Part shown: one piece after another, positions 28,158-30,154 of the stretch | How the letters are laid out: each line of letters opens with the position of its first letter | Numbering within the stretch: the stretch's first letter is position 1 | Assembly (NCBI GenBank): GCA_035495615.1 | Contig: DATJFP010000021.1 | Coordinates: forward strand, 9,024-73,023 | Direction: 5' to 3' | Source of the DNA: Verrucomicrobiia bacterium | Lineage (GTDB): Bacteria; Omnitrophota; Omnitrophia; Omnitrophales; Aquincolibacteriaceae | Length of the DNA: 64,000 nucleotides | The notes under the pieces: model-generated | The model's input: only the letters and a program-made list of their open reading frames with translations | Databases searched by the model: none | What the model was told of the DNA's origin: nothing | Position numbers and translations under genes: made by a program

Positions 28158-28297
28158 AATGGGCCGTTTTTAAGGAATTATCCCCGGTCCTTGCCGGGTA
28201 AGCAGTTGTAACGATTTTTCCCTGTCCCGCGTTGATGACGCTGGACTGCGCTGGCGGAGCCGATAGTTTCCGTTCCGCGTGCGGGAATAAAAGACAT

Positions 28298-28370
28298 TCC
28301 CCTGTAGCTCAGTTGGTAGAGCAAGTGACTGTTAATCACTTTGTCCCTGGTTCGAGCCCAGGCGGGGGAG
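28298..28370 (+). tRNA. tRNA-Asn (anticodon GTT), CCA not encoded
   Basis: Close match to canonical bacterial tRNA-Asn (TCCxCTGTAGCTCAGTTGGTAGAGC...CTGTTAATC...GGTTCGAGCCC). Acceptor TCCCCTG/CGGGGGA, discriminator G followed by TTT. Confidence 0.85.
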
Positions 28371-28377
28371 TTTATAA

Positions 28378-28408
28378 GCCCTGCGGGAGTTTTCCCGCAG
28401 GGCTTTTT
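28378..28408 (+). terminator. Rho-independent terminator after tRNA-Asn
   Basis: GCCCTGCGGGA-gtttt-TCCCGCAGGGC followed by TTTTT. Confidence 0.7.
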
Positions 28409-28414
28409 CATGCC

Positions 28415-28443
28415 TTGACAGTATCTGCATAAGCAGATATAGT
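28415..28443 (+). promoter_or_regulatory. arsR promoter (TTGACA, 17-nt spacer, TATAGT) with an ArsR-type operator inverted repeat in the spacer
   Basis: -35 at 28415-28420 and -10 at 28438-28443. Inverted repeat TATCTGC-ATAA-GCAGATA occupies 28422-28439. Confidence 0.6.
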
Positions 28444-28449
28444 TTGGTC

Positions 28450-28800
28450 ATGAAACTGACCAATTTGCAAATCGCGCTGGCTGCCATTGCCGATCCTACG
28501 CGGCTTAGAATCATGAACCTCCTTCAAGAAGGAGAGCTATGCGTATGCGACGTGATGAGCGTTCTTAAAGAACCTCAATCCAAGGTGTCGCGCCATCTTG
28601 GCTATCTCCGGAAATCGGGATTAGTTGAAGCGCGCAAGCAGGGTCTTTGGATGTATTACCGTTTAGCTAAGCCGAGCGGGAAAACAATTCAGGGCGTTTT
28701 TGAGGCTTTGAAATTAGCCCAAAATGACTGCGAAGAGCTGAAAGAAGACCTGCGGGAATTTAATAGAAGCAAAAGCTGTCTGGTAGCCTGTTGTAAGTAA
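28450..28800 (+). CDS. arsR: ArsR/SmtB-family arsenite-responsive transcriptional repressor
   Basis: wHTH with the As(III)-binding motif ELCVCDV. C-terminal Cys cluster CLVACCK. An alternative TTG start lies at 28444. Confidence 0.85.
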   Translation: MKLTNLQIALAAIADPTRLRIMNLLQEGELCVCDVMSVLKEPQSKVSRHLGYLRKSGLVEARKQGLWMYYRLAKPSGKTIQGVFEALKLAQNDCEELKEDLREFNRSKSCLVACCK

Positions 28801-28821
28801 AATTTTTTGGTCAAAATACAT

Positions 28822-28837
28822 CTGCATAAGCAGATAT
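28822..28837 (+). promoter_or_regulatory. Second copy of the ArsR-type operator inverted repeat, upstream of the aquaporin-like/arsC genes
   Basis: ATCTGC-ATAA-GCAGAT is identical to the core of the operator at 28423-28438. It lies 21 nt downstream of the arsR stop and just upstream of RBS GGAAGGAGGGG. Confidence 0.55.
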
Positions 28838-28858: not shown

Positions 28859-29194
28859 TTGTTGCAATGGAGGGTGCTGCTAATGAACATGGTTTCAAAA
28901 GCCCTGGCGGAGATGGGAGGCGCGTTTGCTCTCATCTTCGTTGGCGCCGGAAGTATTATGCTTTCCGAAAAGCATATTGTCCCGGCTTTTTGTATTCCTC
29001 TCGCGTGGGGTCTCATGGTTTCTCTGATGATTATCGCGGTAGGCCATATATCGGGAGCGCATTTTAATCCGGCGGTTACTCTTGCTTTCGCGATAACGAA
29101 ACGCATTCCGTTTAGCGAAATCTGGTTTTATTGGACGAGTCAGATGATAGGCGGGATTATTGCCGCCAGCCTTTTAGGGGCTTTGAACAAATGA
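28859..29194 (+). CDS. Half-length aquaporin/aquaglyceroporin (MIP family) protein: TM1-TM3 plus the first NPA box only. Possible truncated arsenite channel
   Basis: Aligns to the AqpZ/GlpF N-terminal half (GAFALIFVGAGS...VGHISGAHFNPAVTLAFAI). The ORF stops after TM3. The stop overlaps the arsC ATG (AAATGA). TTG start is 10 nt after a strong RBS, with an alternative ATG at 28882. Confidence 0.5.
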   Translation: MLQWRVLLMNMVSKALAEMGGAFALIFVGAGSIMLSEKHIVPAFCIPLAWGLMVSLMIIAVGHISGAHFNPAVTLAFAITKRIPFSEIWFYWTSQMIGGIIAASLLGALNK

Positions 29195-29610
29195 AAACAA
29201 AAGTGCTTATCCTATGTACTGGAAATTCCTGCCGTTCTCAAATGGCTGAAGGGATATTGAGGCATTATGGAGCAGATAAATTCGAGGTTTTCAGTGCTGG
29301 AACCAAGCCTTCCACAGTCAACAAAATAGCCATTGAGGTCATGCGCGAACTTGGTATTGATATATCCGGCCAACGTTCTAAGAGCGTCAGCGAGTTGTTG
29401 GGGCAGCATTTTCACTATGTCATAACTGTTTGTGATAATGCCAAGGAGTCCTGTCCTATTTTCCCGGGGAATAGCACCCAACTCCATTGGGCATTTCCTG
29501 ACCCGCCGCATGAGAAGACGATTACCGAAGAAGTCCGAAAGGAGTTCCGCAAGGTCCGCGATCTCATTCATACCCGCTTTAAGAAAGTGGCCGAAACGGG
29601 AAACTTTTAG
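29191..29610 (+). CDS. arsC: Arsenate reductase, LMW-PTP / thioredoxin-coupled type
   Basis: ILCTGNSCRSQMAEG P-loop. Conserved Cys pair in VCDNAKESCP. Overall similarity to pI258/B. subtilis ArsC. Confidence 0.88.
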   Translation: MKTKVLILCTGNSCRSQMAEGILRHYGADKFEVFSAGTKPSTVNKIAIEVMRELGIDISGQRSKSVSELLGQHFHYVITVCDNAKESCPIFPGNSTQLHWAFPDPPHEKTITEEVRKEFRKVRDLIHTRFKKVAETGNF

Positions 29611-29722
29611 GCGACTAAGCTGATTTGGGCGCTTTCCAAGAGGATACGGATCGAAGAAAGTTCAATTTTTAAGGCTTCGGAAAGGTTGCGAAACGCGTCC
29701 AACAGGGGGAGTTTTATAAGAA

Positions 29723-29760
29723 AAGGCCGCTTCGAGTCCAATCGCTGCGGCCTTTTTTTT
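29723..29760 (+). terminator. Terminator hairpin with a T8 tail downstream of arsC
   Basis: GGCCGC...GCGGCC stem followed by TTTTTTTT at 29753-29760. Confidence 0.5.
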
Positions 29761-30154
29761 AGTCTTTGACGCTTTGGGGGGCTGATTCTTTTCGAAGAAA
29801 TTCTCTGAGGTCATAAGCAGTAGTATGTTCGGGCCCGATCTCCCATTCTTTTTTTCTGCTATGGTGCAGAAGCGTCACAATTCCGGTCTTTGCCTTATGG
29901 GCCATTTTTTCAAAACACGCCCTCCGGTCCGGCTCTCGAAGCTCCTTCTCGTATTCCTCTAGAAATCGATCATGAGTCCAATGTTTCCAAATTCTCATTT
30001 CCTTCAACTCATAAGAGGGCGCGAGCTCATGCATCCAAGTATAAGGCGCGAGCGTATAAGCATCCATTCCCTCCGGCCACAAAGTTTCCACGAGATATCT
30101 TTCGCCATCAGCCGGTTCATAAGTTTCATAAGCGCTTTTCAATTTAAGGGGCAT
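29759..30154 (-). CDS. DUF488 (YeaO-like) family protein
   Basis: N-terminal pattern KSAYETYEPADGERYLVETLWPEG...LAP resembles the DUF488 consensus (RVYEP...DG.RVLVDRLWPRG). Confidence 0.55.
   Translation of the reverse strand: MPLKLKSAYETYEPADGERYLVETLWPEGMDAYTLAPYTWMHELAPSYELKEMRIWKHWTHDRFLEEYEKELREPDRRACFEKMAHKAKTGIVTLLHHSRKKEWEIGPEHTTAYDLREFLRKESAPQSVKD

Follow-up and report, generated by a model that had tools for sequence, protein, structure and literature searches.

The textbook example of a protein built from an inverted internal repeat is the aquaporin, which is thought to descend from a half-size ancestor of dual topology. Sinorhizobium meliloti has an AqpS-ArsC pathway in which, as for the AqpN-type, NIP-like MIPs, a MIP gene takes the place of ArsB/ACR3 beside arsC under ArsR, and the MIP is the exit for the As(III) that ArsC makes (PMC9454679). 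Channels of this type have six transmembrane (TM) helices, two NPA loops, and, in the sample compared here, a length of 211 to 296 aa. The gene analyzed here lies in a 64,000-nt stretch of contig DATJFP010000021.1 from a Verrucomicrobiia bacterium (the window, whose positions are counted from its first letter) and has the same setting, whereas its product has three TM helices, one NPA loop, and 103 aa. This product, the half-MIP, also differs from AqpS/AqpN-type channels in having neither the arginine of the aromatic/arginine (ar/R) filter nor loop C and in being balanced in lysine plus arginine (K+R). An earlier note, made from the letters of this DNA, had placed the gene in an ars operon, and that context was borne out by an arsR upstream (PF01022) and an arsC of the low-molecular-weight protein tyrosine phosphatase (LMW-PTP) type downstream (PF01451).

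Fluc/CrcB and EmrE/SMR proteins resemble the half-MIP in being small, in having short loops and a near-zero K+R bias, in forming an antiparallel homodimer (presumed for the half-MIP) with the pathway at its interface, and in having fused inverted-repeat homologues within the superfamily (PMC3755343). They differ in that their folds are unrelated and have four TM helices and in that their dual topology was shown experimentally, while that of the half-MIP is predicted; moreover, the half size of the half-MIP is apparently derived from a fused ancestor and not ancestral to it. SemiSWEET is likewise a prokaryotic 3-TM half, which dimerizes to give the fold of the duplicated, 6- to 7-TM SWEET (PMC7162841), but its experimentally solved dimers are parallel, whereas antiparallel pairing would be required of the half-MIP. 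A protodomain review from 2020 cites SemiSWEET as the natural half of SWEET and presents the aquaporin half as hypothetical, naming no natural half-size form (PMC7162841). No description of a natural half-size MIP was found in a full-text literature search, and sequences of the half-MIP family are already public under the labels "aquaporin" or "aquaporin NIP." Actinobacteria are said to carry channel-ArsC fusions (reportedly described by Wu, Song, and Beitz in 2010), which would also couple a MIP channel tightly with an LMW-PTP arsenate reductase; those fusions join a full-length, six-TM channel covalently to ArsC, whereas the window has two open reading frames (ORFs) and a half-length MIP. 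We place the half-MIP with the MIP superfamily and the AqpS-type arsenate pathway, both already known, and regard its architecture as unprecedented.

The half-MIP is a single MIP repeat

The mechanically called ORF runs on the + strand from a TTG at 28859 to 29194 and encodes 111 aa. The likely start is ATG 28883, with a GGAGGG 8 nt upstream, and the resulting 103-aa product equals a database protein, P0001/HTL46925.1, which is labeled "aquaporin [Verrucomicrobiae bacterium]." The half-MIP stop overlaps the start of arsC as ATGA (ATG at 29191 to 29193, TGA at 29192 to 29194), as the earlier note had reported. The features of the pair are as follows.

28869 to 28874, + strand: Shine-Dalgarno sequence GGAGGG, 8 nt before ATG 28883, read from the sequence
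28883 to 29194, + strand: half-size MIP gene, 103 aa, with NPA codons at 29066 to 29074
29191 to 29610, + strand: arsC, LMW-PTP/thioredoxin-type arsenate reductase, 139 aa (PF01451, E = 3.8e-22; TIGR02691, E = 1.6e-39)
Half-MIP residues 3 to 29: TM1
Half-MIP residues 37 to 57: TM2
Half-MIP residues 63 to 71: re-entrant NPA half-helix
Half-MIP residues 77 to 102: TM3, followed by the C-terminal end ...LNK

The half-MIP matched the Pfam MIP family (PF00230) with an E value of 2e-22 and 80.5 bits (cutoff, 25) over profile positions 7 to 108 of 222, which is the first repeat only and agrees with the earlier reading of the ORF as an N-terminal MIP half. Full-length NCBIfam models were not reached (86 versus 171 for TIGR00861 and 76 versus 256 for AqpZ). 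By BLASTP, the protein was 50% identical to residues 5 to 101 of a full-length, ars-linked MIP (locus L005; E = 2e-26) and only 27% identical to the second repeat of the same MIP, and it contained the motif HISGAHFNPAVTLA. Against NIP2;1, a family profile likewise reached 88 bits in repeat 1 and 21 bits in repeat 2, where NPA was aligned on NPA. Where MIPs are defined by two repeats, the half-MIP has one 3-TM repeat, one NPA loop, and one half-helix.

An AlphaFold2 (AF2) model of the monomer, built with 33 family members, had a predicted local distance difference test score (pLDDT) of 95.9 and contained TM1, TM2, a short re-entrant helix after the NPA motif, and TM3. Foldseek placed the model on the N-terminal halves of OsNIP2;1, AqpZ, AQP3, and GlpF, with query-normalized TM-scores of 0.86 to 0.92 and root mean square deviations of 1.6 to 2.1 Å, and the nearest solved structures were the metalloid channel OsNIP2;1 and AqpZ.

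The half-MIP family is conserved

A search of 5.8 billion proteins returned 279 matches, and the best ~107 clusters at 90% identity are taken here as the half family. Its members are 50 to 100% identical to the window protein, come from NCBI, JGI, ENA, and Logan assemblies, and are 79 to 121 aa long, mostly 102 to 106 aa; the dominant lengths were 103 aa (27 clusters), 106 aa (27 clusters), 104 aa (15 clusters), and 105 aa (8 clusters). Members stop 3 to 6 residues past TM3 in a K/R-rich tail that is typically KK, RK, or NK. Alignment of the family indicated 23 invariant residues, among them E10, SGAH-NPAVT, and Q87, and the sequence SGAHFNPAVT was intact in 98 of 100 members. The sole NPA was followed by Val (NPAV) in 100% of members, with no ar/R Arg. 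Codon comparison of eight half-MIP genes gave nonsynonymous rates (dN) of 0.16 to 0.47 with saturated synonymous sites, and dN/dS was 0.06 to 0.32 where computable. We conclude that the half-MIP gene is real and belongs to a conserved family that is under purifying selection and has a fixed end point.

The earlier note had raised a decayed aqpS or the remnant of a MIP-ArsC fusion, with a second NPA half displaced into another reading frame as the sign of simple frameshift. When two full-length relatives and Escherichia coli AqpZ were searched by tblastn against all six frames of the window, no second MIP half was detected, and the best unrelated match had an E value of 0.16. The same search of 11 other loci, with flanks of ~0.2 to 6 kb per side, was also negative for a second half, and in the window and at all related loci the matches were confined to residues 1 to ~101 of the full-length MIPs. 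A displaced second half was therefore rejected as a candidate. Genes for MIPs in ars operons do decay: L126 (1599 to 1922) and L130 (3001 to 3324) contain a truly decayed MIP downstream of arsR, with NAA for NPA and a frameshifted nonsense tail, and P0110 runs on into loop C and looks like a frameshifted full-length MIP. The half family does not look like this: its length and end point recur in over 100 diverged homologues of independent assemblies, dN/dS is far below 1, the NPA box is kept, charges are rebalanced, and no second half is present in any frame. We conclude that a decayed gene, a frameshift, or an assembly error without a function of its own is effectively refuted as an explanation of the half-MIP, and the reading as a remnant falls with it.

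In a profile search of a representative library, the half family fell into few clusters at 50% identity, and ranking by total score put multi-MIP proteins of 900 to 1460 aa on top. These proteins (P0121 to P0129, P0132, and P0135) show eight MIP-repeat matches, as many as four tandem aquaporins would give, and could be either gene-model fusions or real poly-aquaporins. Scans of two collections, one of genome contigs with an alignment as the query and one of metagenome contigs with a single protein, were swamped by the ubiquitous GAHFNPAV/HISGAHFN pattern; the matches listed in both scans were only full-length MIPs of at most 54% identity, which were used as controls. A 447-aa ORF at L007 was considered as a MIP fusion and rejected as an artifact of start-codon choice in a GC-rich locus.

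Charge balance suggests dual topology

To compare charge distribution, the K+R bias was defined as K+R of the N-tail plus loop B minus K+R of loop A plus the C-tail, assuming the MIP topology, with the N-tail and loop B on the cytoplasmic side and loop A and the TM3 end outside. The half family had a mean bias of 0.28 (standard deviation, 0.72; n = 100), with a value of exactly 0 in 64 of 100 members, whereas the same segments of full-length relatives had a mean of 4.0 (standard deviation, 2.3; minimum, 1; n = 77). By segment, the half family averaged 1.0 K+R in the N-tail versus 2.4 in full-length relatives, 1.0 versus 0.2 in loop A, and 1.8 versus 0.6 at the C terminus; it has thus lost charge from the N-tail and gained a near-invariant E-K/R in loop A and a C-terminal KK/RK. 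A near-zero K+R bias is recognized as marking dual-topology proteins, EmrE and Fluc among them (Rapp et al. 2006, as cited in PMC3755343), and the Fluc paper itself names aquaporin as an analogous pore at an inverted-domain interface (PMC3755343). Because the bias is near 0 in the half family and +4.0 in its full-length relatives, the charge distribution suggests that the half-MIP inserts in both orientations. If a 3-TM unit inserts both ways, the result would be precisely the inverted pair that is covalently joined in a full-length MIP.

The half-MIP could instead be one subunit of a heterodimer, each subunit being fixed in an opposite orientation and the partner, a C-repeat-like half or another 3-TM protein, being encoded elsewhere. 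Many dual-topology families do also occur as oppositely oriented gene pairs (Rapp et al. 2006, as cited in PMC3755343), and at nearly all positions that are asymmetric between the repeats, the half family has stayed N-type, as would suit a C-type partner. Such pairs are normally adjacent, however, and a C-half was encoded neither in the window, in whichever frame, nor at the 11 loci with their flanks of ~0.2 to 6 kb per side. Moreover, an N half with a fixed orientation should be strongly biased toward positive-inside, as the N halves of full-length MIPs are at +4, whereas the bias observed is close to 0. A half-size C-type protein was also absent from the results of both protein searches, the sensitivity of which for such proteins is low. 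We consider a heterodimer to be quite improbable, and insertion of the half-MIP in both orientations remains the reading that we favor.

The half-MIP gene is linked to arsC

Gene contexts were obtained by exact-protein look-ups for the window and 11 homologues that are 55 to 78% identical to the window protein, giving 12 distinct loci. The half-MIP gene adjoined an LMW-PTP (LMWPc) arsC in all 12. In 11 of these it was directly upstream of arsC, with a 4-bp overlap in 9, and gaps of 47 nt and 118 nt separated the genes in L090 and L092, respectively. In L084 the order was inverted, such that arsC was upstream of the half-MIP gene, and the pair was still adjacent. A regulator gene was located upstream of the pair as arsR in seven loci and as merR in L091. 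ArsB or ACR3 was not called in any of the neighborhoods listed, the rest of the window not being scanned for either. As the linkage of the half-MIP gene and arsC survives a change in gene order, it points to a functional partnership with arsenate reduction.

The 4-bp overlap in the window and eight other loci raised a further possibility, namely, that ribosomal frameshifting at the ATGA produces a half-MIP-ArsC fusion, that is, a membrane-anchored reductase comparable to the actinobacterial fusions attributed above to Wu, Song, and Beitz 2010. The junction was not conserved, however, as indicated by the two gapped loci and by the inverted order in L084; ATGA overlaps are ordinary in translational coupling, and no slippery site was seen. 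Frameshifting to a fusion is thus very improbable.

Translational coupling and invariable adjacency to arsC would fit equally well if the half-MIP were real and selected but formed no pore, acting instead as a membrane tether or other physical partner of ArsC, as a sensor or modulator, or as an oligomer of some other function, and a pore made from it would be without the ar/R Arg. The invariant residues of the family, however, are those that build the MIP pore core (the Glu of TM1, SGAHFNPAVT, and Y..SQ..GG of TM3), which a mere anchor would not need. In addition, the closest full-length relatives are ars-linked channels and the closest solved structures are NIP2;1 and AqpZ. We regard a nonpore role as unlikely, and as a more serious contender than the heterodimer, and favor a half-MIP that forms a channel.

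Two of the neighborhoods contained further genes around the pair. In L174 (1 to 4743), the half-MIP/arsC pair is located right behind pstS-pstC-pstA-pstB-phoU, which encode phosphate uptake. Arsenate is known to enter through phosphate transporters, and the gene order in L174 thus links arsenate detoxification to the system for phosphate (and arsenate) uptake. In L084/L085 (4580 to 9007), arsC and the half-MIP gene are followed by a CDF cation-efflux gene, an AbiEi/AbiEii toxin-antitoxin pair, MerC, and a second CDF gene, and the region looks like a small metal resistance island.

Proposed model for arsenic exit through half-MIP dimers

Our best model of the locus is a compact, ArsR-controlled operon for arsenate detoxification that consists of arsR, the half-size MIP gene, and arsC. 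Beyond this, we consider it somewhat probable that the As(OH)3 exit of the operon is the pore of antiparallel half-MIP homodimers; the dual topology, homodimerization, pore formation, and As(III) permeability in this model are what we infer. ArsR would repress the operon until As(III) binds, as its family, its ELCVCD sequence, and its C-terminal Cys motifs lead one to expect. Arsenate would enter through phosphate transporters and would be reduced by ArsC using thioredoxin. The half-MIP would insert into the membrane in both orientations, and two opposed copies would pair as an antiparallel homodimer with a pseudo-two-fold, six-helix pore in which two NPA loops meet at the center; the dimers would probably assemble further, in the manner of MIP tetramers. 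By symmetry, both mouths of the pore would be lined by W42, I50, the backbone around A59, and V65 (window numbering, from the alignment with AqpZ), with no ar/R Arg. As(OH)3 would then leave down its gradient through the half-MIP pore, comparable to the AqpS-ArsC pathway of S. meliloti. The earlier note had judged a genuine half-MIP that must dimerize to be very unusual, and the evidence favors exactly that possibility.

Several observations weigh against the model. The K+R bias of the window protein itself is +1 and not 0. Full-length MIPs differ between their N and C repeats at 16 positions; the half family has the N-type residue at 13 of these, and a C-like residue is seen only in column 50 (L) and perhaps in column 20 (V). 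There is thus little sign in the sequences of adaptation to a symmetric interface, and this "symmetrization" comparison is persuasive in neither direction. The pore would be without the near-universal ar/R Arg, V being present instead after the NPA. The search for a partner spanned the 64-kb window and the 0.2- to 6-kb flanks, such that a partner gene at a distance is possible. Finally, a bidirectional channel would help against arsenate only and not against external arsenite. We put at about even the chance that the half-MIP is a natural "semi-aquaporin," meaning a 3-TM, single-NPA protein that is present in both orientations, forms antiparallel homodimers (probably tetramers of dimers) with a pore without the ar/R Arg, and arose by secondary loss of the C repeat from an ars-linked channel.

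If that description is true, the half-MIP would be the first half-aquaporin known from nature. The ancient duplication within the aquaporin fold would then be reversible, and the protein would be a living model of the hypothetical half-size ancestor; a conserved half-MIP family would make the hypothesis of such an ancestor directly testable. It would also allow topology to be engineered by single charge changes, an N-N interface to be tested against an N-C interface, and a pore without the ar/R Arg to be checked, and it would offer a minimal scaffold of ~11 kDa for channel design. Together with arsC, it would make up a compact two-gene arsenate resistance module that so far seems limited to uncultured Verrucomicrobiota, Omnitrophota, and further lineages from metagenomes.

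Origin of the half family

In a simple neighbor-joining tree of ~95 N-repeat columns, the half family was monophyletic in 29 of 30 bootstraps. Its sister group consisted of full-length MIPs from L005, L006, L017, and L026, followed by that of L004. The nearest full-length relatives (L005, L026, and others) were 229 to 231 aa long, and in both L005 and L026 arsC was immediately upstream of the full-length MIP gene. On the basis of this tree, we consider it moderately secure that the half family arose from an ars-linked, NIP-like bacterial MIP, of which it represents the N-terminal repeat, and equally that its half size reflects secondary loss of the C-terminal repeat and is not a relic predating the duplication.

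The MIPs of L004 (4577 to 5275) and L005 (5989 to 6684) end in a vicinal Cys pair (...NPVGCC and ...DHGGCC, respectively), which the half family does not have. These tails may bind As(III).

Operon elements in the window

The remaining elements of the operon and its immediate neighbors in the window are as follows.

28297 to 28371: tRNA-Asn gene, 5′ neighbor of the operon
28376 to 28405: perfect 13-bp hairpin, belonging to tRNA-Asn, right after which the ars operon starts
28415 to 28443, + strand: sigma-70-like promoter TTGACA-17-TATAGT before arsR, matching the consensus at 11 of 12 positions
28423 to 28438: first copy of the 16-bp perfect palindrome ATCTGCATAAGCAGAT, located in the spacer that separates the −35 and −10 hexamers of the arsR promoter
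28444 to 28800, + strand: arsR, ArsR/SmtB metalloregulator (PF01022, E = 1.5e-17; NF033788, E = 2.9e-26)
28820 to 28835: exact copy 2 of the 16-bp palindrome ATCTGCATAAGCAGAT, between arsR and the half-MIP gene
29718 to 29759: hairpin terminator with an A-run and a T-run, bidirectional, common to the operon and the convergent DUF488 gene
29759 to 30154, − strand: DUF488 gene, convergent on the operon

The ORF list begins arsR at TTG 28444, and the likelier start is ATG 28450, which gives a protein of 116 aa, the length found in homologous loci; arsR genes encoding 116 aa are located upstream of the half-MIP gene in L086, L090, L092, and L176. The predicted protein carries ELCVCD and a C-terminal C-x4-CC. 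Sequences resembling a sigma-70 promoter precede the gene, and the TATAGT of this putative promoter stops 7 nt short of ATG 28450 (28438 to 28452). Because the −10 hexamer is so close to the start codon that gives a homologue-length ArsR, the arsR mRNA may be leaderless. The palindrome ATCTGCATAAGCAGAT is present in exactly two copies in the whole 64 kb, where 0.22 would be expected by chance, and the two copies are probably ArsR operators.

The translated arsC contains the CX5R P-loop CTGNSCRS, with Cys9, as well as Cys81 and Cys88, the equivalents of Cys82 and Cys89 in the pI258 type. TIGR02691 was its top match, yet the score of 135 bits was below the equivalog cutoff of 174.3 bits. Judged by these residues and scores, ArsC is a diverged member of the thioredoxin-coupled LMW-PTP ArsC proteins of the pI258 type.

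A simple terminator scan missed the hairpin at 29718 to 29759, which folds at −23.7 kcal/mol (z = −5.4), a stability matched by 0 of 200 shuffles. The best match of the DUF488 protein encoded beyond it was PF22752, described as the "inactive DUF488-N3 subclade." At the other end, the operon abuts the tRNA-Asn gene, and genomic islands are classically inserted at tRNA genes.
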